A DNA stretch of 61,496 nucleotides, the filler included, from Dugesia japonica (taxonomy: Eukaryota): the NCBI GenBank assembly GCA_001938525.1. It is 6 parts of 6 records of this genome, joined end to end, with 100 filler letters (N's around TTAATTAATTAA, not from the genome) between each part and the next. Parts side by side here need not be neighbours in the genome. Positions count along the whole stretch, not along the records: positions 30,436 to 42,430 come from MQRL01641308.1; positions 42,531 to 52,684 come from MQRL01336511.1; 4 more parts are not named here. One strand, given 5' to 3'. The translations under genes were made by a program, and so were the position numbers. Position 1 is the stretch's first letter. Every line of letters begins with the position of its first letter. The notes beneath the pieces were generated by a model that was given only the letters and a program-made list of their open reading frames with translations, searched no databases and had not been told where the DNA came from. Positions 25,701 to 57,532 of this stretch are shown piece after piece.

Positions 25701-25860
25701 TGAACCGGTGAAATATTTCTACGAACTAGCTCACACTCATTTGTAATTGTGAGAAATATAGCAAACTTGTTATTATTTTCTACAATTATTGATATTTTCT
25801 TGAAAATAATACAATATATTANNNNNAATTATAAATTGGCAATAATTCAAGTCGAAATTA

Positions 25861-27147
25861 TTGATGTTAGAAATGTTTCCGAAAATAGAAACTAACTCGT
25901 ATTTCAAACCCTTCAATGACGTTCATGATTACATTTATCAACATCAGAAAATATTTTCAAAGTATAATAAAAAAAAATTTAAATTGCCAAAATTAGTGAT
26001 AAATAATCGCAATGAAATTATCAATCAAAATATAAGTAATTCTGATGAAAATGAGAAAGAAACAAATGAAGACAATGATGAGATTGAAGAGAAAGTTGAA
26101 ATGGGTGGAAAAGAAAATTCAAGTAAGCTGTACATTAACAATGTGTTTAACAGGAAATTATATTTGTTGAATTTTAATCCGGTTAATGTTAGATTACAAG
26201 CAATTCATTTGGGTGATAGAATTTTTGAAGAGAATGAAAATGATAAATGTATACAATCGAGATCAAATACGTATTTTTCGAATAAATTTTTCCATAAAAA
26301 TACTAAATTAAATTTATTGAAGAAATTTTATTCCATTGATTCTGAAAATAGTCGTGTATCCATAATGGAAAATAAAAAACCTTTTATGAAAGCTCGCCAA
26401 AGAGCACCAGCACCGATCTCTAAGAAACGTCCTATAAGCCGGCCGAAATCCAATATTGGAACATCTGTAATTTACATAAAATATCAAGATTTAGATTTTC
26501 AGTTATACCCTGGAATTTTGGAGTTAAAACTTTCAAGGAGTAATTTACAAGATCAAAGTAAATTACTTGAAGAACTTAATATGGAATCTACAGATAGTAT
26601 GAAAAACAAAGCTAGATTTATCGTTAATCACAAAAAAGATATTTTACAATTCACATTCGAAATCGAAAATGTAAATTACAATATTGTAAAAGAAATGATT
26701 TCAAGAGGAATTCAAGTGACTGATAGAAATTACTATGTTAATACAATCAGCTCAGTTACAAATAAAATAACATATTTTTCAATTCCAGAAACAACATATG
26801 ATTTTGAAAATCAAACGAAAAAATTAATGGAAAAAAATACTCATCTTAAGTTAAATAAATTAGAACCAAGGTGGGTATTGGAAAGTAGAATAAAACGAAT
26901 TCAAGAATATAGGAAATGTCGTGTTGATGATCCATACAAAAATATATGGGAAATTAAATTGGGATCTCATTTTTGCTATGAAGACAATGGTACAGTTTAT
27001 AAAGCAAAAACCGGAACAATTAAATGTAAGATTGAAGATCAAATTTATGAAGACTGGGTACATAATCTTCTCAGAGTTTCTTATAAACAGCCAAGTAAAC
27101 AAAGCTTACCTGAAAACGTTGATGAAGGAAAAAATGTGAGTGCTTGA
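25861..27147 (+). CDS. Intronless orphan protein, about 428 aa
   Basis: 1.29-kb uninterrupted ORF in very AT-rich DNA; ATG at 25864; AATAAA about 28 nt after the stop; no family confidently recognised. Confidence 0.75.
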   Translation: MMLEMFPKIETNSYFKPFNDVHDYIYQHQKIFSKYNKKKFKLPKLVINNRNEIINQNISNSDENEKETNEDNDEIEEKVEMGGKENSSKLYINNVFNRKLYLLNFNPVNVRLQAIHLGDRIFEENENDKCIQSRSNTYFSNKFFHKNTKLNLLKKFYSIDSENSRVSIMENKKPFMKARQRAPAPISKKRPISRPKSNIGTSVIYIKYQDLDFQLYPGILELKLSRSNLQDQSKLLEELNMESTDSMKNKARFIVNHKKDILQFTFEIENVNYNIVKEMISRGIQVTDRNYYVNTISSVTNKITYFSIPETTYDFENQTKKLMEKNTHLKLNKLEPRWVLESRIKRIQEYRKCRVDDPYKNIWEIKLGSHFCYEDNGTVYKAKTGTIKCKIEDQIYEDWVHNLLRVSYKQPSKQSLPENVDEGKNVSA

Positions 27148-30100
27148 AATGTTTTCCATGCCATTAAACTTTACAATAAATGAATTTTTAACTCAATTNN
27201 NNNNNNNNNNNNTTTTTTTTCAGTTAAATTCTAACACTTCGGATGGGATTCCCGACTGGGATCTTGTTGTATATAGATTATGAAAAAAATAACTGCAAAG
27301 GATTTACTTTAAAGCAAAAAGCAATAGATAAAATAAATTGTTGATAATTTACTATTTCGGGTTGAAAAATGATAATGGCTCTTACAAAATACAAATATTT
27401 AAATATTTTATAAATAATTCAATAATCCTTGAGATTATGTTTGGAACAAATTGTTTTAGAAAATGAGTGAGAATGAGTAAGTGTTATCCGGAGTCGTTTT
27501 TAAATATTATTTAGGTCCCCAGCTAAAATTATTTGGTATAAAAACCTTTGGGTTCAAAATACAAGTAGCCATTAGTTTATGTCTCAGTTCCGTTCTTAAA
27601 GTAACCGGTGCAAATCGAATCGGAGTTAATTGAACNNNNNNNNNNNNNNNNNNNNNNNNNNNNNNNNNNNNNNNNNNNNNNNNNNNNNNNNNNNNNNNNN
27701 NNNNNNNNNNNNNNNNNNNNNNNNNTCAACAAAATGGGAGGGGTGAGCAGTAACAGTTGACTCAACAGTTAGTTCAATAATCCCCAGATATAACAGAGTT
27801 TTTCTCTATTTTTCTCTTTTCGGATTACTTTCATTTTGTTCCAAGATGACCGCATCTTTTAAGCAAAATGTTTAGTAAACCTAAACATAAGCATTTAGGT
27901 TAATATTTTGTAAGGAGGGATTATCAGTAATGAAATATTTGCAGCGTTTTTCAAAAATGTTTCGCTTAAATGCATTTTATTTTAGCTTGAAATTGTGGGC
28001 AATTTTTAATTAATGGAATTATGTACACGCGTTTTTTGTTTTAATTTTGTTGTTAATAATCCAAACTTTTAACGATAGACTTCTTCAGGGATTTACTTTT
28101 GGATTTATTCAAAATATTAGAGAAATTAGAAATAATTTTATAATTTATTTTAAGTAGGTGGATATGAGCAATCTTCCTATCTTCCATCTGACGTAGCTTA
28201 ATTTGATAAGGTAATTTCATATAGTTGAAGAGTTAATCGTATAGTTTCTTATGTAATCGACCAACCCCAACTATATAAAACATAAAAGGTTACAGCATAA
28301 TATATGACTACACCATGTTTACATAAGAGTTATACAATCATTCGAAGATTACACAAAAATGGTTATCATACCATATTTACATTTCCTGTTGTGTAAACAC
28401 TCGTTAAACTTCATTTCTAACAGAAAATCAGCGCTCTAGCCTATTTTGTTTAAATAAACCGAGTTTTAAATTAAAAGAAAATCATGAAAAGTTTTATATT
28501 AGTCTATAATTTTGCTGGAGATCATTTTTCAAAAATTTTTTATTTATTTGGAAAAATATTTTCTTAAATTTTTTTGTTAGAGGACTCATATAATAGAGAA
28601 TTTTACACTAATCATGAACATTATGGATAGAAATCGTTACGGAGCACTCGTATTCATCCCGATCAATATCAATGTTAATGTTTGATGTTCTCTCGAACAA
28701 TATTAATATTAGAATCTTCCCCCGAAATATTAATATTAGTATTAGATGGAAAACGTTTTATAGAAAATAAATAACTTCATTTAAAATTGAACTTTTTTGT
28801 GATATATTTCGGCGGATCAACATTCATCATCAGACAAAATGAAAAATACGAGATTATTCAGTTTGTAGTATTCAAACAAAGATTTATGCAATTATACTGA
28901 ATATTAGATGACCATATTAAAAATTGAAATTTATTGAAAAATGTTTAGCTCATAAAATTTTATCTAATTTAAACTTATATTGATATTTTAATATTTTAAA
29001 ACCTATATAACATCAAAAATTGAAAGATTTTCTTTTTGAAAATTTGTTGGAATAAAAGGTCCAGATATAAAATTAAAAAATATAAGGACAAAATGGAAGC
29101 TATTTAAACCCCCAAAAATTTAGAGTTCTTTTAAAAAAATTTTTTTTAGAATTATTAACTCACTTGCGATTTATTTGAAATAAAGAATTTTCTGTGAAGT
29201 GCAATCATTAGAGACAACTATTTTCTTGGTTTTAACAAAATAAGAGACTTGAGCAAAAACATTTTGATAGGAATTAAATGCGGATTTTAAAGCGATACAA
29301 CCAAATAACCTTACTACTTGTTTGAAAGGAAAGATATTCTACCCGTTGCAGATGTTGGACTAGAACGTAAGCACCCATAAATAAAGGCTGCGAGACTACC
29401 AGTGAAAATAATGACGAAAAGGACAAAAAATGAGCAGAGAATTAAGAAAAAGATTAGAGCTAATTATTATGGAAATTGAGAAATCGAAAATTAGGCGTAG
29501 AAGAACCTAATTTGGAGGTACGAGAATACATTTTGGATATAAAAGAAGAAAATGTTGAATTAGATAATAAAAATAATGTAAACAACTATAATAATATATT
29601 AAAGAAATCTCTACGACCCGATTTTCTTTATTATAATAACGCTAATTAGTGTTTGATATTATTGTTATTATTATTTAATAATCATCTGATCCAGTCATGA
29701 AAATCGTTCGATTTTGGTTTTTTTCCAAGTGCTGAATCATCAGAAATTCAGACAAGGAAAACAAATGTCAATCGCTTGACGACACGAATTTGGAAAATCC
29801 AAATTCGCAGCCAATCAAGTTGTGCAGACAACCGGAACATTAGTGGAGATATAGTTAACGAAAATTGTTGTACACATGTGGTGTGTAAATAGTTTTCATA
29901 TGCTCATCAGTAGACATTGGCCAATGAGATGGTAAAATTCAAAAATAGAGGCCAGCGATTGGTCGAGCAATAAGAGCTCTCCAATCTAATGATCTGACAG
30001 AAAAAATAAAATGTCCAAAAAAGAAAAATCATCATTTTTATGCAGTCATTATTTTAAATCATTAAGTTTAATCATTATTTTTCAAATTATTATTTTTGGA

Positions 30101-30436: not shown

Positions 30437-31945
30437 GAATCAATTTTGGGTGAACCATTACCAATAATTTTAGTCAACGAAAATGCTGAAGATATTTCGA
30501 AAAGAATAAAATTATCAATTAAAAATTTAAGGAGAATATTTCTCGATCCTCGTGTTATAAATAGTAAACTAATGATCGTTTCAATAGATGGATCTCAACG
30601 TACAGGAAAATCCTTCTTTATGAATATATGTATTCGATATTTACAAAAGCGCCGAGTTGAGTCACTTATTGCAAATCAAGATTCAATGTCTGGATTTGCA
30701 TGGCGAACACCATTGGATAATACTGGTTTTACAATTTATATATGGAGTGAACCATATATCATAGAGTCATCGGCAAAGACGAAAGTGGCAATATTACTAT
30801 TAGATTGTGATGGTTGTCTGAGTAACAAAATGCTTTATAAAGAAACATTTATTGTTTATGCTTTACTGCAAATTTTAAGTAGTTTACAGATTTATAACAT
30901 ATTCAGTGAAATCAATGAAAGCCATTTACAATGGCTTGCAATCAGATCCGAATTTTCGAATATATCGAAACATTTTACAGATCAAGAATATGATGTTCTC
31001 TCATGTAAACCATATCAAACAATTTGTATTTTAATTAGAGATTGGCCTTACCCATATGAATTTTTTTATGGTGCAGCTGGTGGTCAACAATATTTGAATC
31101 GATATCTTTCAGTTCAATTTAAGGGATTACCAGAGCAAAATATTTTATTACGTCAATTCTTAAATTCTCAGTACAACAATATTAATTGTTTCTTAATGCC
31201 TCATATACAAATGGAATCAAGTTCGAATAGTTTTGATGGTAGATGGGATGAATTATCAAATGAATTTCAAGAGCATGTTTTAGGATTTATGAAAACTGTA
31301 TTCTCCTCTCAAAATCTATGTGTAAAAGAGATTTGTGGTCAGTCAATTATTGGCAGAGATATGTTGAGTTATATTGAAAATTATTTTAATACAGTAATTT
31401 CTATAGATAATCCTATACCACATTCTGGATTTGATGCATGCGCTAAAAAGCATCATTATTATGTTTTTGATGAATGCTTAGAACATTATAATCAATTAAT
31501 GATATATCGTCATTTAAATAGTGAGTCTGCTGTTATTCTTTTAGCGTTTCATGATAAATGTAAAATATTAGCCATACAAAAATTTGATGATAACTCGAAA
31601 TTTGGTACGAAAAAGTATTCTGAACATTATCGTGCAAAATTAGAATCACAGATAGATGAAAATTTTATTCGATTCTTTGCTATGAATTCATCACACCCCC
31701 TTGCCATAACTCGATTATTATCCATTATTGTTTTAAGTATAATATTCCTCACAACAATCGGATTGATTAGTAGAATATGTCGCTTCACTAAAATGCAATG
31801 GGTGTCAATTTACGCAGAAAGATTTACATTCAATTCAGTTATTTTATTAACTGCATATTGTTTGATAACAATAAAGAAAATATATAGTCAGCTTAATATA
31901 AACTTAGAAATACAAACGTTACTACGAAATCAATTCTTGAGTTAA
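30437..31945 (+). CDS. Atlastin-like (GB1/RHD3-type) large GTPase, divergent, intronless over this span, 5' end missing
   Basis: P-loop GSQRTGKSFFMN, GFAWR..IWSEP, LLLDCDG, SSLQIYN, LIRDWPYPYE..YG..GG, CFLMPH, helical region, two C-terminal hydrophobic segments; frame is open from the scaffold start. Confidence 0.9.
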   Translation, partial: ESILGEPLPIILVNENAEDISKRIKLSIKNLRRIFLDPRVINSKLMIVSIDGSQRTGKSFFMNICIRYLQKRRVESLIANQDSMSGFAWRTPLDNTGFTIYIWSEPYIIESSAKTKVAILLLDCDGCLSNKMLYKETFIVYALLQILSSLQIYNIFSEINESHLQWLAIRSEFSNISKHFTDQEYDVLSCKPYQTICILIRDWPYPYEFFYGAAGGQQYLNRYLSVQFKGLPEQNILLRQFLNSQYNNINCFLMPHIQMESSSNSFDGRWDELSNEFQEHVLGFMKTVFSSQNLCVKEICGQSIIGRDMLSYIENYFNTVISIDNPIPHSGFDACAKKHHYYVFDECLEHYNQLMIYRHLNSESAVILLAFHDKCKILAIQKFDDNSKFGTKKYSEHYRAKLESQIDENFIRFFAMNSSHPLAITRLLSIIVLSIIFLTTIGLISRICRFTKMQWVSIYAERFTFNSVILLTAYCLITIKKIYSQLNINLEIQTLLRNQFLS

Positions 31946-36700: not shown

Positions 36701-37189
36701 GATTTTCGTAATTAATTGATTAATTAATTATTTGTTATTTTAAATTTAAATTTTCTAACATTTCTAACACAATGTAATAATTTTTTTAAATATTCTAAAC
36801 AGTATTTCATTTAACTTTTTAAACACGTGTTGCTTAACTCTAGATTAATGAAAATAAAAATGCATTGGTTTAGTTTCTTGTTTCAATTATTTAATGAATT
36901 GAAATTAATTTATTTTCGTACCATTTTTACAAAACAAATCGGCATTGTAATTCAATGTTTTGATTTTTGAGTTAAATTTAGAATTGTGTAGATTAACAAT
37001 ATTTCTGTTTTTCAAGAAAATGGTCATTACAACTACCGATTTCAATTTAATTTTTAGAATAATTGATTACATTTAATTTTAAATTAACATACTTTTGATG
37101 GATCCCCATTTATCAAAGATGAATCATCATTCGAAATTTTGCAAACCTTGCTATTTGACTCTGAAGAGCAACTGTTGCTATTTGACCGT
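33775..37189 (-). CDS. Unknown multi-exon gene, 3' exons 37189-37093, 34696-34654, 34607-33775; N/S/Q/L/P-rich
   Basis: Exons bounded by tttAG/GT join in frame (..LINGDPSK|EQITDRESCNQSVT|PVITCYNNQCLYIP..WNNGLQWKY*); additional exons may be missed. Confidence 0.65.
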
Positions 37190-38237
37190 CTAAAAATAAT
37201 CACGTTATCTTTGAAATTTTAATTTTGAATGTATTTAACAAATCATTTGAAAAAAATAAACTATTTTAATTAAATTTTCTATAGTTAATGGCAAATTTGT
37301 TTAATTGTAAATTTATTTCAACCTTTGGAGCCATATGATTCTTCAATACACAGAATACAATAAACAAAATTATTAATCAAGACATAATTGTTTGTTTATT
37401 TATTAATTAATATAATTAAATTGAACAATTATAAGATTAGTGTTTATAATAAATAACATTAACGATTGAACTTTAATTATAATTAAAAAAGTCATTTTAC
37501 AAACATTTATTATTACTAAATAAATTCACAATAAATATTAAAAAAAATTATACATGTATTTTTTCACTAATACAAACAAAAACTGCTACAAATAAATAAA
37601 TTNNNNNNNNNNNNNNNNNNNNNNNNNNNNNNNNNAAAATCGCTATCTTTTCATCATGAAACTGTTTATTTGTTCAATGTCGTCAATATTAAATAAATAC
37701 CAACCCCAGATTTCTTTAAAATTGCTCTAGAAAACAATTTTTACAAAATCAAAGCTGTTATCTAATCAAAATATCCGAAAATGAAATAACTAAGAATTAA
37801 ACGTCATTTGAGCTATTTTTTGCTCATTAATAGTTGCGTATTGAACATCAATTATATTATCTTAAGGCTTCTTTTTAAATTCAATTAATTAATTTTTAAT
37901 TTAGACATTACAGATACTTTATACTTGAATTTGAACGCTCCCCATATTAAAAATTCACATTCTAAAATAAACCTTGTATAAGTTAGGCTGACATTGTTTT
38001 AGTATTTTTATTGAACTGTGCCGTTTATGTAAAATTTTAATTCAAAACTCAAAATTAAATTATCAGAAAAAAAAACTATTTATCTAGTTAGCTTATATAC
38101 AGTTTTACAATTACATTTATTGCGAGAATAATTGTAGGACTTAACCATTGATCATATTTGAGATTTAATTAAATTAAAAGCTTCGATTAAAATATTGTTT
38201 TTCTTTTTTATATTTATTTTTATTAGTTCTTGATAGT

Positions 38238-38268
38238 ATTTCGAATTTTCGATTTTGTCTTCGTCAGG
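38238..38268 (-). ncRNA. Degenerate minimal hammerhead-ribozyme motif in a Penelope pseudo-LTR copy
   Basis: Minus strand CTGACGA-A-GAC-AAA-ATC-GAAA-AT-TC-GAAAT; stem II mismatch, and the 5' arm of stem I is replaced by MITE sequence. Confidence 0.55.
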
Positions 38269-38633
38269 GTGGTGTAAAAGAAGATATATAGTAATCATTA
38301 CTCTAGAAAATAGCTTTATTAAGTCACAATAAGAATTCATTATGATAAAACCATAAACTCAGTTATATACAGTCTCTGAGGTGCTCAAATTGTTGTCCTT
38401 CAGCATTGACTGCGTAACCATCTTAGCGTTCATTGTCATCCCATATTACTTAATTAACCACTTTCTTTTGTCAATATATAAATTACCAACCACGATTATC
38501 TAAAATAAATTAAAACTAAAATATTCCATTCAAAATAACTAACAAACTTGTGATATTTAAATAAACACCGATTTTATTAATGTAATATTTATTACAGTAA
38601 TGATTACTATATACCTACTTTTGCACCACCCTA
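38265..38633. mobile_element. Tc1/mariner-type MITE with ~37-bp TIRs
   Basis: CAGGGTGGTGTAAAAGAAGATATATAGTAATCATTAC mirrored by GTAATGATTACTATATACCTACTTTTGCACCACCCTA. Confidence 0.8.
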
Positions 38634-38640
38634 TATATAT

Positions 38641-39540
38641 TACAATTACAATTATTGTGAGAATAATTATCTATCGTTTTTCAGATTTTATTAAAATAAA
38701 AGCTGCGATCAAATTTTTATTTGTTTTTGATAGTATTGAGATAAATGAAGAAATGAGATTGATTTCTCTCAAGTTGCTAAAAAATAAATTGTTAAATAAC
38801 GACTACCCAAATAAATTATATCAAAATATTTATTTTGGAATACAAAATATAATAAAATCAACCAAAAACAAACACAGTTATTAAATTACCTTTTATTAAT
38901 GAGAAATGTAGCCAAATCATAAAAATTTAATTAAAAAAATCTATACTCAAGCACAATCGGAGAATTATATTCGAAACGCGAGAACCTTCAGGCATTCAAT
39001 TACAGAAACCACGACAAAACTTTTGTGGTCCCAAATGCATTTGTGATGGTAGAAATATATGCAATAAGAAAAATGTAACTTATAAAATAACATGCACCAT
39101 TTATAAAGAAACATGTATAGGTGAAACCGAACGATACGAGCAAGAATTAAGGAACAACTCAGACAAAAAGAAAGTGAAGTCTTCAAACACTTTCAATACA
39201 AACATAAAATTTCACTAGAACATCACATAACGTGGAAAACACTAGGAACCGACTACATTTCCACACATCACAGGAAAAAACATGAAGAATTACTAATTAT
39301 AAAGATAATTCTAAAATCAATGTAATTTATAATAATTAATTAATTAAAATAAAAAAAATTAAAATTAACCAATTAAAATTCAGTAAAATTAATTAATACA
39401 AAATAAATATTTCTATTGCAAAAATAAATCTTGAATAAATCCAAAAAGTTAATTCCTGATGAAGACAAAGTCGAAAATTCGAAATACTATCAAAAACAAA
39501 AAAAATTGATCGAAACTTTTATTTTAATGAAATATATATA
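38641..39540 (+). mobile_element. 5'-truncated Penelope-like retroelement: inverted pseudo-LTR, RT thumb, GIY-YIG endonuclease, 3' pseudo-LTR
   Basis: LLNNDYP and IKLPF thumb-like words; CGPKCIC..C.KKNVTYKITC..CIGETER..RIKEQ..SEVFKHF..H; 38641-38737 is an inverted copy of the sequence after 39484. Confidence 0.85.
39451..39485 (+). ncRNA. Minimal type I hammerhead ribozyme (Penelope pseudo-LTR)
   Basis: TTC-CTGATGA-A-GAC-AAA-GTC-GAAA-AT-TC^GAA: full core, 3-bp stem II, palindromic AATT in place of stem III, TTC/GAA stem I. Confidence 0.75.
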
Positions 39541-39745
39541 AATAAATATTTTTAAAAGTTTATATTTATACAAATTAAATAATACAGAATTTTCATTAAA
39601 AAAAACTTTGATAATTTGAAAATAACTGGAAGAAAATAAGAATAAAACATTAAAGTATAAATAATTTAATAATAATTTATTAAAATAATTTAATTAGAAA
39701 AAACATGAAAGAATTTACACAATATAAAAATTACGTTATAAATAA

Positions 39746-40004
39746 GGCGCTGCCCATTAATTATATCAACTAAATCGGAAAAGATTTGAATAAGTTTGAC
39801 AATTGTTGACAAAGTTTGGAGCCTGTGCAAGATAAATTGACGTCAACTATACTTTTAACAATAAATTTAATAAATCAAAAAAATTTGTTAAAATATTGTT
39901 TATTGTGAGGAGTAAACATTTGTTATTAGGGGTCACTGAAAGTTTGAAAATTTGTTGACAAAGATGGATGGGTTAAAAATTCCTTGAAAACTGTTGACAG
40001 TCCC
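39746..40004. mobile_element. PIF/Harbinger-like MITE
   Basis: Ends GGCGCTGCCCAT.. and ..GACAGTCCC flanked by TAA / TTA; internal GTTGAC/GTCAAC repeats. Confidence 0.5.
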
Positions 40005-42305
40005 TTATATGTCCAAGCGATAAGTCATTTGACTTCATTTGGCGCTTTCAACTTCGCTAAACGTATTAAAATACCCAAGCTATTTTTGACACACTAAGTA
40101 ACATTTAACCATTTCATAGTGCAAACTATTTATTTTAAAGGACAACTAAATTAACTGAAGTGATAATATTTTTCTTATGTGTAATATGTTTGTTCCAGGT
40201 TCAAATGTATATTTTTAAAATTGAGTAAATTAAATTATAAAGAAAGAATTTATTTTTCGTGCGATGTATTAGCTAAGTGCTAATTCCTTTCACTGTAAAT
40301 ATTATCTTAAAAAAATTAATTAATTTTAAACCTTTTAAAATATTCAAGTATCGTTAATATTTTTTAATAGTTCAAATAAAATAATTTAAATTACTCAAAC
40401 CAGAAGGAGAATTTAACACTTGAAAGACCAAATGTTGAGTGATATTTAGAATGATACATACTGGTTAATTTCGCTTCGATTATATTAATTACACGTTATG
40501 AATTGTGAGAATATTATATGGAGTGGTTTGGTTTTAAATTCAAAATTATAATTAAATTAATTTATTGACTAATTAAATTAATAACATAAAACCAAAACAT
40601 TTTACAGTAAAAATATTAAAATTTTCAATATACAATAAATCGAAAAATATAAATAAATTTTATTTTAAAAAATATTTTTATTTTTACGATATATTTTTTA
40701 AAAAAATTTTGAATGTTAAGATGTCGTCAAATTTAATAAATTTTAATAAATATATAATTTAACACCATGAACACCAATAAGGTTATACAATTCTATATTA
40801 CTTTTTTTAAAAAAATTAAACAATCAATTAAAAATTATAATAAAGCACCACAAATCTGCGATGGTATTAAATGTTTACAGAAGAAAATTCGCATTAATAA
40901 AAAGTTGAAACATAATGATTTAATTTTTAATATTTAACTCCAAACAAGAATAGTACAAGATATTAAATTAAGTATTTCGAAGACCGTTTTATTCGGAATA
41001 AGTATTAACAGTCTTCTAACTGTTTTCAAATCAAATTGTGAAATTTTATACTTTCCAATAATATAAAGTGAAATTATCACATCATGGATTACTCTTGTTA
41101 ATGTTTTCTTGCTTTTGTTACTATTTTATTCAAGGTTATAAAAAGGTATAAATATATAATTACAATATACTAATATACTAATATATATATATATATATAA
41201 TTTTCAATGGGAAAATAGAATCGCATACCCCTGTAATATTAACAGCGATTCTAGGGATCATCGTGCTAAATACAAAAATCGGAGGCTATTTTTATATGTT
41301 ACTCCTCGTGTATATAATTTTTAGAAATTAAATACGAAAGTTGTTTCTTTTAAATTAAAAAAATATATATTTGAATTATTAAAAAATTTAAGCGGGGTGT
41401 GAACAATTAAATATTTATTATCTATTTGAGTTACTTTAGATTTTTAAATACAAATTTTTCTTTGTGTTCATAGAGATCTATCAATTATCAACAATGAATA
41501 CTTATGATCGAATAACTGTAAAGATAATTTAAATAAAATAACCACATTAAAAATAACCCGTTTTATACAAAAACTCATTCATAGAAAGTTTAATTTCCTA
41601 CTTACTCTAGGCCTTTTAATATTATAAAATTAAAATAAAAACGTTTAATTAATTAAAGTTAACATTTGATATTTTGTCACTGAAATTAATAACCAGAAAT
41701 TAACAAGTCAATTTCAATGCAGTTCTAAACATTCAAATTCTTCTTTAAAAAAATATCAGTCTAATAATAATGAAACCTTAAAACGAAAAATTATATTACA
41801 AAAACACTGACGTATTAAAACGATTGCTGTAGAGTTAAATTAGATTTCAAAATGATTTTTTTCCTTGTTTTATTTGAATAGAATGAGTATAGTACATAGT
41901 ATAGTAAACTACTAAAAAATCAAATCTAAAATCTAGACTCTTATTAGAAAATATTATCAAATTTCAAAAAAATAGATTAATATATTTCATGTAACAAAAT
42001 CTTTTATATTAAATTATACTATACTTATTTTTGATTTGTGTCATGAACAAATACATTGTAAAATCATATGGATTAATTGGATTTTATTTCATTTTGTTAT
42101 TATAGAAATGAGCTAATTTCATTACTGTCTGAGGTTCTGAGCCAATTTTGTCAAAAAATAAAAAATGCTCTATACAGACGAATGAACATCTTGTAAAAAA
42201 TAATCATTAAATATCGTACAATAATTATTTATTTTGCGATCAACAAAGTAAATTTCCAAAGTAAAATTTCATATTTAATTGATTATTTTACAATTGNNNN
42301 NNNNN

Positions 42306-42420
42306 TGAGAATAATTGTTGGACATAACCATTGATCGTTTTTCAGAATTCATTTAAAATAAAAACTTCGATCAAAAACCAAAAAACAAAATTTGATCGAA
42401 GCTTTTATTTTAAATGAATT
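42306..42420. repeat. Inverted pair of Penelope pseudo-LTR fragments
   Basis: AATTCATTTAAAATAAAAACTTCGATCAAA ... TTTGATCGAAGCTTTTATTTTAAATGAATT; left part matches 38118-38195. Confidence 0.7.
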
Positions 42421-42430
42421 AATTGATTAT

Positions 42431-42530
42431 NNNNNNNNNNNNNNNNNNNNNNNNNNNNNNNNNNNNNNNNNNNNTTAATTAATTAANNNNNNNNNNNNNN
42501 NNNNNNNNNNNNNNNNNNNNNNNNNNNNNN
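42431..42530. other. Artificial scaffold-joining spacer 4
   Basis: 44 N + TTAATTAATTAA + 44 N. Confidence 0.95.
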
Positions 42531-42769
42531 ATTGTAATTATAAAATTATATATCAAAAACAACACAAAATTTAAAAGTGTTAAATATAATATAATATAAT
42601 AATTAAAAATTTCTAACATAAAAACTAATATAGAATAAAAAATTTTAAAAAGTTAATTTAAAAATAAAAATTAAAATTCATAATTAAATAAACCAATAAA
42701 ATTTCGATAAAATCTAAAGAATTGAGTAGCAAAGATCAATTGTATTGAATATCTCAAGAAGCCAACATG

Positions 42770-42801
42770 TTCCTGAAGAAGACTATTGTCGAAAATTTGA
42801 A
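42770..42801 (+). ncRNA. Minimal hammerhead-ribozyme motif in another pseudo-LTR copy
   Basis: TTC-CTGAAGA-A-GAC-TATT-GTC-GAAA-AT-TT^GAA, followed by the same TCGAAGCTTTT tail. Confidence 0.65.
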
Positions 42802-45800
42802 ATTCTTTACAAATAAATTTTATTTTGGTCGAAGCTTTTTCTTTATTTTAATGAAATTTTTAAAGCTATTCATTTAAAATTAATTAAATTTCCTTATCTA
42901 AAAACATAAATAATATTTTGATATATTTTTTATCATTCAAAAGTTTAAAAATGCTAGCAATTTTAAACAATTCCAAAAGTTTTGATTTTCCCACACTGCT
43001 TTAATGTATATAAATTTTTTGGTATAATTTGAATTTCTTTGGGGATTTTAATAAGTAACAAATTGATTATAACAAAATGATATCTTAACTTTTTATATGC
43101 CAAAACTTGTAAAATCTATTTTCCTCCTAATAATTCCAGGAACTGTTGGCAATTAAATAAAAAAGAAAAAATGTTTGTTAATTTAGACCTGAACAATGAA
43201 GTCCATTTAAAAATGTTATACATAGTAAACTTTCTCAAAAAACCATATAAAATGTAATATTCCAAAAGAAGGACAATGACAAGTAATGAGTTAACGATGT
43301 AATTATAAACATTATCGACTTAACCAAATGAAAAAATCACCAATCTTATTATAATTCTTGAAATAGAATATTATAAATTTTAAATATCTGATTTAAAATC
43401 TTAAAAACAGACGATCTTAATCCAAATGCAAAATAATAGATTTTTCAAATGCATATCAGCTTTTATATTCTAAAGATCTTATATATTTTACCATCGAGTA
43501 GGGGTTTAAAGTATCAATATCGGGTAATTCAGAATTCGATCATGTTAAATATGAAAGTATTTTCCGAATATTTCAAATTGAAATGGAAATTATTTTTTGT
43601 TGGGTTTTGGAAACTCATCGAATCATTAACACCAGAATTCAAATTCATTACAACGATTTATTAATATAAAAAACTATAACCAACAATATTTGTTAATCAA
43701 ACAAATTAAAATCCCTTGTTTTAATTGGTGATCTTTTTTATAAAATTAAAAATAAAAACATTTTATTTATTTACTTAATTTTCATTAAAAATTTACATCA
43801 AAATTTTCACTAACTTTTAAAATTTTATTTCAATAATTTTAATTTATCCTTAAACTAAGTATTTGTTTATTTAAATTTTTCATCAATAATTTAAATCTCT
43901 CTTTTAAACAAAAGATTTTAAAAATAAGATCACCAATCACACAAAAATTTAAACTTGCTTTTCACAACCGCTCACATTACTATTGCGACTTACTATTTAT
44001 TATTCTCATTATTATTTTATTCAATTATAATTACATTGTGTTAGTAAATTATAATTATACCAGTGTTGAATAAAATAATGAGAATAATAAATAATAGTAA
44101 GTCGAAATAGTAACAATAAAATAATTTGCATTTCAATTTGAAATATTCGGAAAATACTTTCAGATTTAAAATGATTAGAAAACTGTAAGTTGAATATTAT
44201 CAATTAGTAATAAATTATTTTATTATTTAATATTTGTAACATTTAATTGTGATAATTAATTTTACAATTGTCAGATTGAGGAATAAATAATGTCTGTTTT
44301 GTGATTTTCATAGGGAAGGAATCATTTNATGATACTAGTTCATGAGACAATTCTATCTTACTTTTTCATTTCCTATCAAATTATATAAAAAATTTTAAAT
44401 ATCGTTGCAATAAAATTTTCTTGTTTACCTACTGCCACGATTAAATTCAGTAAGCAGGAAATGCTGCAAATGCTCGTTTTTGTTTACTTGACTGACCGTT
44501 TCAAATATCAAAATTTAACAAAATTAAAATTGAATAATTAAAACAAATGCATGACCTTGTAGAGCGAAAAGTTCTCTTTCAAACCACATATAATACTTAG
44601 AAAAATATTTTTATTTATATCTGCCTTTTTAAATTAAAATAAACCGGACATTACTTATTCCCCATCCTAATATTACTAAAATAATTGTTGAATCTAACCA
44701 CTGACCTTATTTTTAAAGTTTGAATAAATTAGAAATTGTAGATCAAAAATATTTTCTTTAATTTCTTATTAAATACCCAACAAGTTATTGAACAAAAAAT
44801 TAAAGGAAATCTTTTTGATCTAGGCTTATAATTTATTGAAACTGTATGTGGTAGTTTATATGAAATTTTCAATTTTCGGTTTTTTTCAAAATGATTTTTT
44901 ATTCATTTAAATTATAAACAAAAATTTATGAGTTTGTATATATTTATTTGGATCCATTAAGTTTTTATCTTAATATTCTTATTACTGGTTAAGTTAAATA
45001 ATTAAATTGCAGAAAAACTGTTAATTTTTTATAAATATTCGATCGTGGTGTGATTTATAGCAATTGATTTACAAAAGTAAAATATCTTTATATATTGACA
45101 TTTAATATCTAATGCTGCTAGCTCATGTATATTAAAGGGAGGCATTTTGGTTCGTTGGCAATCAATAATTGCATGCATTAGTCTAGCATTTTATAATATC
45201 TGTACTTTTTAATTTATGGCCTTTCAGTTTAGTGCAGAATTTTAAAATTTCTTTTATTTGTTTTCTTATAATATTTATTATTTTTATTTTATTTTAAAAT
45301 TACTACAATTTATTTATTTTTTATTTTACAAAAATTTTCGAATAACCAATTTTTACATGACAGACTGTTAATCTTTGATGATAAATGAATTTTACGTCAT
45401 TTAGAAAATCACCTTTACTTTGTATTTCATATTTATTATCAGTTACTTTTCATGATTCTTGCTTTGTTTAAAAATTAAGGATTATAGATTTGTGGAAATA
45501 TTAGATTCAATTTATTAAGAAATTGTTGCATTAAATGTAATTAATTAATTGATAAATATTTTCGTATTAATATATATCCTCGCTTAATTATAGTAAATAT
45601 TACTTTCTATTTATAATAATAATATTTTAAAGTTGAAAGTTTTGTTTATATTAAATGATATAAATCGGATTTATTTCATCCGTATTAAATATTTATTTTA
45701 GTAAAATTAGAAAATTGGTTTGTATTTATTGATGGTATTCAGTATCCGTTGTTTAATATAGAATAAACACGAAATTTAATAGTTCAACTAAATATAAGAT

Positions 45801-46219: not shown

Positions 46220-49200
46220 AGTGCAACCGCTGAAATCACATTGATTAAAGGCAACAAAATTAAGATGGTGATTGATGAGAAATATGCTGACTCATGTAAT
46301 GAAGAAGTTTTATGGGTTGATTACAAAAATATAGTGAAAATTCTCAATCCAGGTTGTAGAATCTATGTAGATGATGGTCTAATAAGCCTTATTGTCCATG
46401 AAAAAGGTGAAATAATCATAAATTATTTTGTTTTAATTTCTTAATTGAAATACTTGTGTATAAAGCATTTAGAACAGTGATTCCCAACAGGGGGCAATTT
46501 GAAAATGAACTCATTTTAAAATTAAAGCTTTTTTATATCCTCAGTCGCTACTAGAGTTGTGTAAACCTCAAATATAATAACTTCTGCTTTCTTTTGTAGA
46601 GTAGCTTCAGAGATAGGCAACATAGTTAACTAAATTCGAACCCGACATAATATCTCTTTGTAGCAAGCATCAAGCCCAAGGTTCTCATTAAACCTAAATA
46701 CTAAAGAATTCACATTAATTATTATAAGCTTAAAAATTTTCATAAAATCATTAGTATTATGTCTAAAAATAAATTCCTAAGAATTTCTTTAAAACTTATC
46801 ATTCGAAATTCTTTAGTGAACATTTGAATTTTAGGATAGAAAGGATGTGGGACATTTGAATTTTATAGAGGCTTAGGTGGGACATGGATTAAAAAAGGTT
46901 GGGAAACACTGCTATTTAGAATCTATTTAAATCTTCATAATATGCTAATTTGTTTATTTTTTTTTACTTTAAAAGTATGAAATTGTACAATGTTTTGAAA
47001 TATTTTTTTCAGAAATTAAAGAATTCTGACATGACTTAAACTTGTTTTTGAAAAAAATCAGAAATGTATTATAAACACCGAAACACGTAATAGCAACACG
47101 TTTCAGCAGTACATCTGTCATCTCCAGAAAAACTGTTTTAAACTATAAATAGAGTATATATAGTAAAATTCCGCGTTGTGTAATTGATTATGTAACAGCC
47201 TCAATCAAATTCAAACATAAAGATATTCAATAATGATTTAGAAAAGCCCGTTTGAACATTAATTTTTGGATCATAAGATCTAATTATCAATGCATCGTGC
47301 ATGAATCTCTCATAATACTGTTTAAAGCTTCCGCAAAAAAAAATTTCTACAAAACATTTTTTTGTGCAGAAAATTTAGAGATTATTGGGAGGGAGTCGCT
47401 GTCTAATCCTCAATTAACAACATAATTAATAAGACTTCTTTAAGAACGCTATTACCATCTTTCGGGTTAATACGTGAACTCATTAATAGAACTACTACAG
47501 ACAAATTTTAATATGGGATTATCGTAACACGGCACACAATTTGTAGCGCTATAAACACCCCATCATCTTCTTAGATCCGCTCAATTCTTGTTTCAACGAG
47601 GTCCCGTCCTGATTTAACTTTGGATATCCCAATATTAGGATGTCCTGTTCGGTAAGTGGGTATGCCATCAACCGAAACAGAAGGGCACAGCACAGTATGA
47701 TGAATAGACCGCATATTGTAGCACTTCCCACGAAAGCTTATTTAAAAATTCATAAACTCTGCTTGCGACGTTCGGCTGGGCTTTCTCAAGCAGCAAAATG
47801 ACTTTGTGTTGTCTTATCTCATACTACAATTGTTTGTCACGCAATGCCTACCTCAGATGGATTATCTGGTCTAGGTTCAAGTCCCTGTTGACCAAGCTTT
47901 AAAAGCTCGTGACGCATAACAGAGTCTTTTTCCATTGGATGTTTCTCTCTGGAGTTCTTTTTGAATGCTGGCCATTCATTTTCCTGTATTTAGTATTTTC
48001 GAAAAAAATCCATTTTTTGTTACCCGTAACAATTTAATGCACGAAACCTTTCCTTTTTGTAGAGCAGGCAAAATGTCATCTGTGGCCTTGTATCTTTAAA
48101 TCTTTAAAAGTCTCTTAGGTTGAGTTCGTAAGACACCCACCTTCCTTGCTTGTAAACCTAACACATGGTTTTTAAACGTCGACTTATCGATGATCAACAA
48201 ACATTTAATTATTTGGCAAGACCATTTTGACCTTAGCACGGATCTTCATCCATCAATGCTTCCAGCTTTTGGTCTTCAAACCGTTTCCTTTGTACAGGAC
48301 GATCTTTATCTTCCACCGAAAAATCATCATTTTCCTCATTTTTCAGCAAAAGTATAAAAATGAAAATTAGAAAATTTAATTAATTTTTAAAATTTTCATA
48401 GGGCCAGATTTTTTGGATTGTGAAGTTGAAAATGGGGGTAAATTAGGATCTAAGAAAGGAGTAAATTTGCCAGGTGCGAAAGTTGATTTACCAGCTGTTT
48501 CAGATAAAGATATATCTGATCTGCACTTTGGTGTTGAACAAGGGGTATTAGATTCTTTGCATAATTATTTGCCTAATAAGATCTAGGTTGATATGGTTTT
48601 CGCTTCATTCATACGATGTGGTGCTGCTGTTGATGAAATTCGAAGCATTCTTGGTGAGAAAGGCAAACATATTTTGATTATTTCAAAAATAGAAAATCAT
48701 GAAGGTGTGAAACGGTACATATTACGTACTTTAAGAACATCCTCTACTATCTAAGTTTAGATTTGATGAAATATTGCAAGCATCCGATGGTATTATGGTT
48801 GCCAGAGGTGATTTGGGAATAGAAATACCCGCAGAAAAGGTATTCCTTGCACAGAAATTAATGATTGGCCGCTGTAATCGTCTTGGCAAACCGATTATTT
48901 GTGCCACTCAAATGTTGGAATCAATGATAACTAAACCCCGACCAACACGAGCTGAATCCAGTGATGTAGCAAATGCCATTTTGGATGGAGCCGATTGCGT
49001 AATGCTCTCAGGTTGAATATTACATACTTTATAGATTTTAATGAATTTTAATTAATTAATTTAATTTTAATTAATTATAACTGCTATTATAAAAAACTTA
49101 AATTTAAATTGAAGGATAAAATAAGTAAATTTGTTTTAATAATAATCTTTATTTATTTATCTTTATGATTTGAATTAACTTTTATATATAAACTCAGTGT

Positions 49201-52784: not shown

Positions 52785-53281
52785 AAATTAAACAATTCAA
52801 ATATCATTCTCACAACACGTTTAATAAAATCATAAATATCATTACTTATATAGGACAATCTTAAAAGAAAATCTTTAGCATATCGAAATTATTCAAAAAA
52901 TATTTATAAGGCAGTCAAAAGATTTGAACTAATAAAAATATTTATTCGACATATTCAAAAATTATAATAGTAATTATTTAATAAAATTTCACTTAAATTA
53001 AAAAATTCGAGTTACTGAAAAAATTTGAATTAGAGGTTGACTGTGTTTCATTATAAAATATAAAAGAAATTAATAATTGTAATACTTAATAATAAAATTA
53101 ATTCAATTATCAAAATATTACCATTGTTTACATTTCATTTCTTATAGTAGTTTGCCTTTCAAACTTTCAACAAAAACTAATGCATAAAATTTCAAACCAA
53201 TTAAATTTGAGATAGAGCTTTTTTTGAAATTTTAATTTCAAAAAAATAAAGAAAAACATTTTTTCCTAAATTGACATTGAA

Positions 53282-54244
53282 ATGTGTAAAACCATATTTC
53301 CAAAAGAAATCCAAACGGCTCTAAGTGTATTTTATAATGCAATAGCATCAGTTTCATTGATTTTTAATTTCACTTGTATTGTTGTAATTTTTGTAAAAAA
53401 GGTCCATTTTCATTCAATTATTTCCACGCATATTATTCGCAATCAGTTTATTTTCGATTTTTTCGTTGTTGTAAATTTATTGATTATTTTAAATGAAAAA
53501 TATGAAAACTTAAACATACCTTTATTGGATGAAATCACTTGTTATCTTTGGAACAGTCAATTTCCATATTGGGCAATGGTGTGTGTATCGATTAATAATC
53601 TTGTCGATAATTGTCTAGACAGATTGATTGCTGTTCGATGGGCTTCTTCGTATAGAGCAACGATGAAAACGAGATTGAAATTATACTACTGCTTTTTATT
53701 TACAATTCCATTATTTATCAGTTTTTCAGTAATAGTCGATACAAAATATGTTCGAGAAATCAATCAATGTATCGATCGAAATATTAATTCAACAGAAGCT
53801 TATTTAATTTTTCAACAATTTTATTCATCATTTTGGTTTTGTTTTACGTTTTTAATACCTTTTTGTATATCAACAATTAGTTTTATTTTGATTCATCATA
53901 GTATGGAGAAAACATCAAAATCCAATTTGGGATCATCTATGAGAAAATCGGAAATCCGTTATACTATTGTGACTTTTATTACTTTAATTATATTCATGTT
54001 GACATATGGAATGGAAAGTATTTTGTATTTTTTAAAGTCATTCGGAGTAGTTTGCTATGAGAAAAATGATTCATTACAACATTTGATAACAGTTCTTGGA
54101 TCGTTGTCCAGTATGGCAAATCCGGTAATTTTGAATTCTATGATAAAATGTTTAAGAAACCAATGGATAATGTTTTGGTGTAATCCGATTGGAAAACGAT
54201 ATTTCGCTAGTAAAATTGGACCGACAACGAGTACAACATTTTAA
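53282..54244 (+). CDS. Intronless rhodopsin-like (class A) orphan GPCR, paralogue 1 (320 aa)
   Basis: Seven hydrophobic segments; TM1 N, TM2 NQ..D, Cys at top of TM3, DRLIAV, ECL2 Cys, TM5 F.IP, TM7 NPVIL. Confidence 0.92.
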   Translation: MCKTIFPKEIQTALSVFYNAIASVSLIFNFTCIVVIFVKKVHFHSIISTHIIRNQFIFDFFVVVNLLIILNEKYENLNIPLLDEITCYLWNSQFPYWAMVCVSINNLVDNCLDRLIAVRWASSYRATMKTRLKLYYCFLFTIPLFISFSVIVDTKYVREINQCIDRNINSTEAYLIFQQFYSSFWFCFTFLIPFCISTISFILIHHSMEKTSKSNLGSSMRKSEIRYTIVTFITLIIFMLTYGMESILYFLKSFGVVCYEKNDSLQHLITVLGSLSSMANPVILNSMIKCLRNQWIMFWCNPIGKRYFASKIGPTTSTTF

Positions 54245-55647: not shown

Positions 55648-56572
55648 AAAAATTTTTAAAGTTTCAGCACAAAAATTATTTCATTTAATTTAATTCATTT
55701 TTCTGAATTAAAAAAAAATTTTAATTATCTCTTTTTATTATTATTTTATGTTTTTATAATTTTATTTTACGTGATTTGGTTTAATTCAATGTTATTAGAA
55801 CCTTTAACATTTACGCACTTAAACTTTTTATACTATTTCTTTTGATTTATAATTTTCTTTAGTACAGCTTGAGATTTTGAAATTTCTTAGCTGTGAAATA
55901 TTTTTTACAATAGTAATTTTTTAATTTTTAAAAAAATTCAAAAAATATATTATTTACAATTTTCCTGAAAGTCGTAAAAAATATAGTTTTGAATCAAATA
56001 ATAAAAATATTATGAAAGTATTAGAGTAAAAAGTTTTAATTAAACTACGCACACTTGAGGAAACTGCACCTTGAAAAAATTGTAAACCAACATCATTTTT
56101 AAGTAAAATAAACAGTATTTGTTAAAAAATATTACGTAACTCGTAGCTTAATTAGTAATTTTATTGAAAGTATATTGAATATCAAACTTTTTCAAGAAAT
56201 CTATCAAGAAACAATTTTAAATAATTACCGAACATTCACCAAAAAATGTTGTTATTAATACATTATTGAATTGAAAATAAAAATTTTTCAGACTTTTATA
56301 AAATTTTTACAAACCTAGATGAAGTTAAATGAAAAATCACAATTTAATTAAAATCAAAATTCAATTTTTGACCGATGATACCTAGTTTAAATAGAATTTT
56401 GACATACTCGGATAAATCATTTATGTTTCCAAACTCATCAAGCAATAATAATAAACGAAATTCTTCTAATGTTTCTTTGTTGAAATCTAATAACCAATTA
56501 AAATCAAGACTAGATTTTCAATAATTTCAAGTTCTGTTATTTATCAATAATTCGAATTTCATTTAAATCAAA

Positions 56573-57532
56573 ATGTGTCGAAGTAAAGTCATTTCAGAAA
56601 TCGTTGATGAATTAAATATATTTTATACAGTTTTCGCATCGATATTTCTCATTTACAATTTATCATGTATAATTGTAATATTTTCGAAAAAAGTTCGTCT
56701 TCATTCAAACATTGCTACTCATATGATTAGAAATCAGTTTATTTTTGATTTTTTCGTTGTTTTGAATCTGATTATAATTTTAAATGCAAATTTCGATAAG
56801 TTTTCTTATATTCCGATTTTAAGTGAAATTGTTTGTTATGTGTGGCAAAGTCAGTTTCCTTATTGGATGATGATTGTTGTATCGATCACTAATCTCATTA
56901 ATAGTTGTATCGATAGACTTTGTGCTGTTAAATGGGCGACTTCTTACAAATCATCAATGAAATTGAGATTCAAATTATATTATGCATTATTATTTACAGT
57001 TCCATTATTCGTTACATTTCCAATTATAATCGATACGAAATTTGTCAATAATGTCTGTATTGACCGGAATGCGAATGCAACAAAAATATTTTTAAATTTT
57101 CAAAGATTCTATTCAGTTTATTGGGTTTTTGCGACGTTTTTTATACCTTTAATTATTACTATTATCAATTTTGGTTTAATTTTACATGTGATGCATAAAG
57201 CAACAAAAAATGGCGGAGGAATAGCTATGAGAAAATCAGAAATTCGATACACAGTTGTTACATTTATAACGATAGTAATATTTATTTTTGCATTTGGCAT
57301 GGAAAGTATGTTATATTTGATGAAGTCTTACAATATTATTTGTTATGAAAAGAATGATCCATTACAACAAATCGTTGTGGTGTTAGCATCTGTGTCAAGT
57401 ATGATTAATCCGATTGTTTATAATTCAATGTTAAAATGTTTGCGAGCAAATTGGGTGATTTTCTGGTGTGTTTGTCTAAGTAAACGTTTATGTATTAATT
57501 CGGTAAATCCTCTAAGTAGTTCTACACCATAG
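56573..57532 (+). CDS. Intronless rhodopsin-like orphan GPCR, paralogue 2 (319 aa)
   Basis: Colinear with paralogue 1 (IRNQFIFDFFVV, SQFPYW, CIDRN, MRKSEIRYT, GMES, CYEKND); DRLCAV; NPIVY. Confidence 0.92.
   Translation: MCRSKVISEIVDELNIFYTVFASIFLIYNLSCIIVIFSKKVRLHSNIATHMIRNQFIFDFFVVLNLIIILNANFDKFSYIPILSEIVCYVWQSQFPYWMMIVVSITNLINSCIDRLCAVKWATSYKSSMKLRFKLYYALLFTVPLFVTFPIIIDTKFVNNVCIDRNANATKIFLNFQRFYSVYWVFATFFIPLIITIINFGLILHVMHKATKNGGGIAMRKSEIRYTVVTFITIVIFIFAFGMESMLYLMKSYNIICYEKNDPLQQIVVVLASVSSMINPIVYNSMLKCLRANWVIFWCVCLSKRLCINSVNPLSSSTP

Follow-up and report, generated by a model that had tools for sequence, protein, structure and literature searches.

We consider it probable that the hammerhead-like motifs in a 61,496-nucleotide stretch of Dugesia japonica DNA (the window) are minimal type I hammerhead ribozymes in the pseudo-LTR (pLTR) of a high-copy Penelope-like retrotransposon (PLE), present here as truncated or inverted copies that likely cut only as a dimer paired through the palindrome AAUU. 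We assigned them to pLTR fragments of such an element because one copy follows the end of an open reading frame (ORF) for reverse transcriptase (RT) and a GIY-YIG endonuclease, and because the tail of the motif runs into an ORF start. The motif is real but ordinary, one more family of the kind described in 2014.

Copies of the minimal hammerhead

The preliminary description had listed three copies of one core motif, and all three were recovered: copy A at 38267-38240 on the minus strand and copies B and C at 39456-39483 and 42773-42801 on the plus strand. This core pattern, composed post hoc, was found 3 times against 0.00 expected, and a general hammerhead core pattern was found 6 times against 0.78 expected. 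The published descriptor for minimal hammerheads (stem I of 3 to 7, CUGANGA plus an optional base, stem II of 3 to 7, a loop of 3 to 10, and GAAANNUH; Fig. S7 of PMC4209133) retained two of these six matches, B and C, whereas 200 shuffles averaged 0.01 matches each and never gave more than 1; copy A failed it. The list of three was also incomplete. Tail-only pieces lie at 38640-38737 (−), 42281-42375 (−), and 42377-42421 (+). A fourth, decayed copy (28039-28220, minus strand; 65% to B over 192 columns) retains 3′ UTR and, near 28088, a core lacking the GAAA box; its profile match was weak (E = 0.2). Rfam gave no hammerhead among its six matches at E values up to 10 in 37000-44000, the exact motif had no matches in metagenome contigs, and no RNA holder was listed among the indexed runs searched.

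Copy B (39453-39483, plus strand) is intact by descriptor match. It comprises a UUC/GAA stem I, CUGAUGA, an extra A, a GAC/GUC stem II with a 3-nt loop, GAAA, the palindrome AAUU, and C17; the predicted position of the cut, after C39480, is as first given. Copy C (42770-42801, plus strand) is also descriptor-positive and belongs to a diverged subfamily. It does lie on a different scaffold, separated by one of the five N44-TTAATTAATTAA-N44 spacers in the window, and its position 17 is U, not C. Both differences noted between B and C are there (U7 versus A7 and loop AAA versus UAUU), and the ribozyme is better kept than its flanks, matching at 27 of 32 positions between these copies versus 103 of 161 and 37 of 56 in the flanks.

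Copy A (38240-38267, minus strand) is damaged and 5′ truncated, as judged from the descriptor failure and its junction sequence. The stem II and stem I pairings that had been ascribed to every copy exist in B and C, but A reads GAC-AAA-AUC, with a C-A mismatch, and keeps one of three stem I pairs. The 5′ strand of its stem I is missing, and in its place stands the end of a MITE-like repeat, the two meeting at a common CCTG. This 367-bp element (38266-38632), with 47-bp terminal inverted repeats (87%), is a separate repeat family; its depth was a few hundred to about 1,000, versus 10^4 to 10^6 over most parts of the PLE. We take it to be mariner-like.

The extra A after A9 and the palindromic AAUU (the latter in A, B, and C) were both confirmed, and both are already published consensus features (PMC4209133). 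Five of five aligned sequences share the extra base that separates position 9 from 10.1, together with a G10.1-C11.1 pair. Two of the five are the related loci L001 and L003 (33% protein identity), where a hammerhead of the same design stands about 40 nt past the protein match: two 3-bp stems, the extra A, and ACGU as the palindrome, with no stem III. Five of eight pairs differ on both sides between related elements, a covariation that comes from two independent lineages, L001 and L003 having been chosen by a descriptor that demands pairing.

Folding predictions gave the monomer hammerhead 0.7%, versus 33% for a rival hairpin, and put the double-hammerhead dimer at +5.0 kcal/mol, versus −9.9 for an off-register duplex, in a model without core contacts. 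The ribozyme plus tail, or the tail alone, folded no better than shuffles in 8 of 8 cases (z from −0.58 to 1.78). As an alternative partner for stem II, the box downstream of the ribozyme was rejected, with a pairing probability of ≤0.002 in all four sequences.

The Penelope-like element and its fragments

That these are Penelope pLTRs, as first suggested, is upheld for B by its position after an RT/GIY-YIG remnant and for C by flank homology only. The remnant (38743-39339, plus strand), identified by tblastn with the protein P0001, is a 5′-truncated, decayed ORF end covering the end of the RT thumb, a Cys linker, and the GIY-YIG endonuclease, and it carries a stop codon, frameshifts, and small deletions. 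Identity to P0001 is about 80 to 82% overall (residues 681-773 at 80% and 773-830 at 74%). P0001 itself is an intact 843-aa protein from a single ORF, with an RT (RVT_1, E = 7e-07) and, at the C terminus, a GIY-YIG domain (E = 2.8e-04; score 21.6, slightly below the Pfam cutoff of 22.6). The two ORF fragments from the window, scanned alone, gave no family match. Searching with the protein alignment recovered no relative from viral contigs (0 of 11 stretches) or from prokaryote genomes (0 of 17). A scan for bacterial promoters found 12 against 16.5 expected and is uninformative for an animal.

Copy B lies 116 nt past the stop codon of the remnant (39337-39339). The AT-rich 3′ UTR between that codon and stem I (39340-39452, plus strand) forms the 5′ part of the pLTR and is homologous to the 150-nt 5′ flank of copy C, with a score reached in 0 of 300 shuffles. 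At the other side of the ribozyme, the tail of A (38098-38239, minus strand) consists of 5′ leader and the first ORF codons, residues 3-20 of P0001 matching 38151-38098 at 72%. Residues 2-20 match across the tails of A and of two ribozyme-less pieces, D and E. One unit runs from the ORF (RT, GIY-YIG) through a 3′ UTR of about 115 nt and the hammerhead to a leader that enters the next ORF start, the open frame beginning about 60 nt or more past the predicted cut. An AUG within the core of B was considered as the ORF start and rejected: it is not in A or C, and a stop follows after 16 codons.

The AT-rich tail with TCGAARCTTTT said to follow each copy was recovered as four exact matches to this box, all in 38176-42839; at one mismatch there were 13, versus 6.45 expected. 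The tail of B (39484-39533, plus strand), delimited by homology to C, has its RUCGAAR box at 39509-39515; that of C (42802-42856, plus strand), delimited by box search and comparison with B, reads GUCGAAG. The homology between B and C stops about 50 nt past the ribozyme, where a TA run begins in B, and both tails stop about 55 to 60 nt before those of A, D, and E. The RUCGAAR box lies 24 to 32 nt downstream of the ribozyme, is common to a family with only 33% protein identity, and may be a second functional part.

Piece D (38640-38737, minus strand), found by sequence comparison, is a tail that sits, inverted relative to B, at the 5′ end of B's insertion. Its sequence starts 2 nt past the predicted cut and terminates in a TA run. 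TA runs thus flank D through B on both sides and would mask any target-site duplication; D, the ORF end, and B are one dead, 5′-inverted insertion in a TA run. Piece E (42281-42421), found by inverted-repeat search, is a fold-back pair of tails without a ribozyme, with P0001 residues 2-20 at 42337-42281. Its 30-nt arms are 97% complementary across a 15-nt spacer, and its centre lies about 9 to 14 nt past the predicted cut. Copy C is of an older subfamily. All the copies here are likely inert, since none has a same-strand partner.

The claim of a dispersed, high-copy family was borne out: in two assembled runs, about 32,000 contigs per run fell on 38050-39700. Many family copies end at about 38103, where 243 and 209 contigs, as well as 275 RNA reads, had loose ends whose flanks were mixed.

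Proposed dimeric cleavage and competing readings

Dimer-only cleavage would be the likely behavior of this family. A transcript spanning a partial tandem would carry two hammerheads about 2.7 kb apart, and their AAUU segments would pair as a shared 4-bp stem III, a pairing that the element's protein probably helps. Cutting after C17 would then free a unit-length RNA, on which reverse transcription would start about 110 to 140 nt beyond the cut and so produce the common 3′ end of insertions. Because the arms of D and E begin 2 and about 9 nt past the predicted cut, they could also be read as a record of hammerhead cleavage in vivo, the RT having run off a ribozyme-made 5′ end before snapping back or changing template; we find this doubtful.

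In a different reading of the same element, its hammerhead would work as a single unit with help from the protein, or would be only a folded landmark or a passenger whose cutting transposition does not need. The hammerhead of the Anolis element cuts only with protein, its mutants had no effect on insertion in vitro, and no reads start or end at its site (PMC11167929); Naiad elements, which lack canonical hammerheads, still reach high copy. Here, RNA ends did not pile up at the predicted cleavage site in either of two RNA runs, a weak test with fragmented RNA-seq, and in the close relative L002 (43% identity) no hammerhead was detectable in 458 nt downstream. We nevertheless judge this reading unlikely, if deserving of some weight: the letters at 15.1-16.1 vary (AAUU, ACGU, AGCU) yet remain a palindrome, although the descriptor did not demand one, and neither a pure passenger nor a monomer would need it.

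The preliminary description had proposed that tandem copies release small RNAs, and a nonautonomous, retrozyme-like repeat would do so in linear or circular form. Such repeats reportedly derive from PLE pLTRs (bioRxiv 10.64898/2026.07.22.740005), and the ribozyme plus tail is far deeper in contigs than the preceding 3′ UTR, so that short solo copies may be common. Yet none of the nine tandem arrays in 37600-43500 holds the motif, A and B are oppositely oriented, C is on another scaffold, and head-to-tail joints numbered 0 of 15 among the joints listed (of 461). Together with the lack of an RNA-end pile-up, this leaves the proposal unsupported, and we regard a retrozyme as very improbable. Non-LTR retrozymes share the type I hammerhead and the PLE link but are noncoding, with canonical hammerheads in tandem units of 170 to 400 nt, whereas the copies here are solo, minimal, and ORF tied (PMC7229834). 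It is more improbable still that the host co-opted a copy for cutting or regulating one of its own transcripts. Family reads come from both strands, and 85% continue into unlike sequence, which may place fragments inside host transcripts; however, only 27 of 4,470 and 0 of 126 RNA reads were at least 99% alike to the stretch, 37600-43500 has no ORF of at least 90 aa except the PLE remnant, copy A is damaged, and copy B lacks a partner.

Relation to known Penelope-like hammerheads

The nearest known counterparts are the minimal hammerheads in pLTRs of metazoan PLEs (Cervera and de la Pena 2014, PMC4209133). Copies B and C share with them the core boxes, an additional nucleotide following A9, the G10.1-C11.1 pair, a palindrome at 15.1-16.1 in place of stem III, a short stem I, and the place after the endonuclease ORF, and copies in both are mostly solo and on opposite strands. 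Among the published examples, the UUC/GAA stem I recurs in that of Nematostella and the AAUU in that of Crassostrea. The longer-than-usual stem II of typical minimal hammerheads is absent: stem II is 3 bp here versus about 6 in the consensus, a length that the descriptor allows and the C. briggsae example has. Together, stem II and its loop take up 9 nt in B, versus 11 nt for the shortest of 56 examples in Fig. S3 of that paper, read by eye. At 31 nt, the ribozyme may be among the smallest known. The kinetics of minimal hammerhead dimers were reportedly studied by Lunse et al. in 2017. Only three points are mildly unusual: the very short stem II, the RUCGAAR box common to a distant family, and the two inverted junctions 3′ of the predicted cut.

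Like the Poseidon element PAc of Anolis (PMC11167929), this family has a hammerhead in a pLTR near the ORF start, insertions that end at fixed sites shortly inside the ORF, AT-rich targets, and a cut site at which RNA-seq shows no ends; the PAc ORF begins within stem II, whereas the frame here begins later. As in the Nematis clade (PMC8557442), the C-terminal GIY-YIG domain comes with CxxC and His residues. The linker of that clade is CX2-5CxxC, and a CX3CX2C linker resembling the Nematis rows of Fig. S2 occurs in relatives of P0001; in P0001 itself and those closest to it the linker is reduced to CX3CXC, and they carry DKT/DKS, so that P0001 is at most a possible member of the clade as described there. 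We suspected Hydra-clade membership from the DKT motif and a CxCX5C-like linker, features shared with that clade along with TA-run targets (PMC8557442). It was ruled out, since that clade has YRDD and MGxYD and a divergent RT4, lacks CCHH, and has hammerheads with a real stem III of 3 to 4 bp, whereas P0001 has YIDD and MGNNLSP and retains the Cys/His set, and stem III is absent here.

Earlier papers already describe cleavage as a dimer, 5′ copies in inverted orientation, palindromes at junctions, pLTRs extending over the ORF start, and RT initiation at internal sites (PMC4209133, PMC3846280, PMC8557442, PMC11167929), and the role of PLE hammerheads in transposition has been called unclear (PMC8557442, PMC11167929). 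The helices of this family are at the lower size limit of their kind. The family would gain in importance if junctions peaked at the cut site genome-wide, and, being abundant and including an intact member, it is well suited to a test of that role.

Hammerhead cores in the window

The preliminary description had proposed three hammerhead cores, and all three were found: A at 38240-38267 on the minus strand, B at 39453-39483 on the plus strand, and C at 42770-42801 on the plus strand, which a scaffold spacer separates from the rest, as had been claimed. An after-the-fact core pattern matched the window three times, against 0.00 expected, and a general hammerhead core pattern matched six times, against 0.78 expected. 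We then applied a descriptor coded from Fig. S7 of Cervera and de la Pena 2014 (PMC4209133), which retained two of the six general matches, B and C (mean of 0.01 over 200 shuffles). The idea that all three share an intact core therefore holds for B and C but not for A, which fails the descriptor, having GAC-AAA-AUC and a single stem I pair. Near 28088 there is a fourth core, now decayed. An Rfam search around the cores returned no hammerhead match.

The motif had rightly been identified as the minimal hammerhead of a Penelope pseudo-LTR (pLTR), since the remnant of an open reading frame (ORF) for a reverse transcriptase with GIY-YIG precedes B. It is a Penelope-like element (PLE) minimal hammerhead, a kind already known. 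Stem II and its loop together take up 9 nt in B, and the large variant set of Lunse et al. 2017 may contain helices as short as this. By comparison, the shortest such combination is 11 nt (by eye) among 56 published examples (PMC4209133) and 10 nt in File S2 of PMC8557442. PMC4209133 lists, as features of metazoan minimal hammerheads, an extra base following A9, a G10.1-C11.1 pair, and the palindrome.

The element and its insertion locus

A 95-aa frame 5' of B had one longer relative among 21 candidates, the intact 843-aa protein P0001, to which it is 82% identical. P0001 has RVT_1 (E 7e-07) and GIY-YIG (E 2.8e-04, slightly under the cut-off) domains and aligned to 38729-39336 of the window, where the coding sequence is spread over three frames and broken by a stop, frameshifts, and deletions. 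Its residues 1-20 are matched by the AT-rich tails of A, of D (an inverted tail piece at 38640-38737, minus strand), and of E (a fold-back pair of tails at 42281-42421), so the tail comprises the leader and the start of the next ORF; individually these matches are weak (E 0.002 to 1.5). The true start codon of P0001 is uncertain, because its relatives start near residue 13-21. In Adineta elements, likewise, the pLTR reaches into the ORF start, taking in the first 12-22 codons (PMC3846280). The summed parts of the element give a unit of 2,733 nt and the P0001 contig measures 2,764 nt, an agreement that may be coincidental. Of 7,996 scored candidates, 63 are relatives. Judged by motif only, the protein appears to be Nematis-like; placement in the Hydra clade was rejected after comparison with Hydra-clade sequences.

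A second PLE family has left a remnant at 47097-47320 (minus strand). Its C-terminus resembles the Perere_Smed row, a hint that the host, an AT-rich animal, may be a planarian; about 120 nt further on lies a dead hammerhead with C3 at 47127, altered in A6, in stem II, and at position 17. Elsewhere, on the plus strand, the window holds two intronless paralogous rhodopsin-family GPCR ORFs (53270-54244, with a 7tm_1 match and only three relatives, and 56567-57532), an intronless atlastin/guanylate-binding-protein ORF that is possibly a retrocopy (30437-31945; GBP E 3e-42), an LTR-element-type reverse-transcriptase fragment (59472-60008; RVT_1 E 5e-10), and a 433-aa open frame that matched no Pfam family at E below 0.1 (25846-27147).

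Read along the plus strand, the insertion locus opens with the tail and the damaged core A, both on the minus strand, followed by a moderately repeated 367-bp MITE-like element (38266-38632) that has 47-bp terminal inverted repeats, adjoins PLE pieces at both ends, and is presumably mariner-like. CCTG is common to A and the inverted-repeat end at their junction. Next come the inverted tail D, the truncated ORF end, the 3' UTR, ribozyme B, and a short tail. The stretch from D to B, bordered by TA runs on both sides, fits the pattern published for PLEs in which a copy truncated at the 5' end is preceded there by an inverted one (PMC8557442). None of the copies in the window has a same-strand partner. 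The anatomy and family of the element are established.

Conservation of the ribozyme and its downstream box

B and C are identical at 27 of 32 positions in the ribozyme, 103 of 161 in the 5' flank, and 37 of 56 in the tail; past the tail they are unrelated, with 163 of 300 shuffles scoring equally high. A relaxed descriptor matched 14 of 33 related metagenome loci, some probably by chance. Among the top three loci listed, two (L001 and L003) show this short hammerhead design 3' of the ORF, and no hammerhead was detected after the ORF of the third, the close relative L002 (43% identity), in the stretch searched, 1277-1735. When five sequences were aligned, both sides had changed in five of eight pairs and 92.5% of cells paired, in an alignment of two lineages only for which L001 and L003 had been selected by a descriptor demanding pairing, though not position, helix lengths, or the palindrome. 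Two other loci, L008 and L009, contain tandem repeats of ~160 nt with TTGATGATATGATTGAAATT at about 880-1630, upstream of a PLE hammerhead.

Two distant families share a RUCGAAR box 3' of the ribozyme: it lies at 39509-39515 and 42828-42834 in the window and 24 nt past the cut in L001 and L003. In B, L001, and L003 the core palindrome (AAUU or ACGU) is repeated ahead of the box. Six of 12 sequences have CGAAR 10-70 nt past the cut, against 0.6 expected from shuffles; leaving aside the three sequences that suggested it, the count is 3 of 9, against about 0.5 expected, at scattered distances. The pairing that would make this box an alternative stem II partner did not form in prediction.

Relative to the predicted cut (after 39480 in B), D begins 2 nt and E about 9 nt downstream, and A and an expressed inverted variant break about 23 nt upstream. 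The variant comes from six reads (RNA run X21, window position 38968) in which an inverted hammerhead with C11.1 changed is joined to the ORF; they represent an inverted insertion that is transcribed from another genomic site. Two of the four junctions thus agree weakly with a cut-site origin, in arms of only 100-170 nt. Among the papers listed and the texts cited, none dealt with the PLE family of the window, the downstream RUCGAAR box, or cut-site junctions.

Family copies, transcription, and predicted folding

Contigs of two assembled runs were compared with 38050-39700 at 80% likeness. The 31,976 and 31,813 contigs recovered, which are not copy numbers, show that the family is large and diverse. 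We examined the best 24 of 2,995 loose-end rows and the best 40 of 324 difference rows. Among those 24, loose ends with mixed flanks gather at 38103 (243 and 209 contigs), the common 3' end of insertions, as expected under internal reverse-transcription initiation (PMC11167929). A second cluster among the same 24 lies at 39443, 13 nt 5' of C3 (205 and 206 contigs). It could mark a truncation point or subfamily divergence; possibly it is a 5' edge shared by solo insertions of the ribozyme and tail.

From two RNA runs, 4,470 and 126 reads were obtained; they lie on both strands, and 27 and 0 of them had at least 99% likeness. Copies of the family are transcribed, and the window locus itself is probably little transcribed. 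Neither run showed read ends piling up, a weak test given their fragmented libraries.

According to PMC4209133, single minimal hammerheads did not cleave, and dimers and trimers cleaved weakly. The active shape made up 0.7% of the predicted monomer fold, compared with 33% for a hairpin in which the core is buried, and an off-register duplex was predicted at -9.9 kcal/mol, against +5.0 kcal/mol for the active dimer. Since prediction favors the hairpin and the off-register duplex, the activity of the naked RNA is likely to be low. The Anolis hammerhead requires the element's protein and is dispensable for insertion in vitro (PMC11167929). In the element described here, a partial-tandem transcript would carry two ribozymes pairing via AAUU, probably assisted by the element's protein, and a cut after C17 would free the unit RNA.
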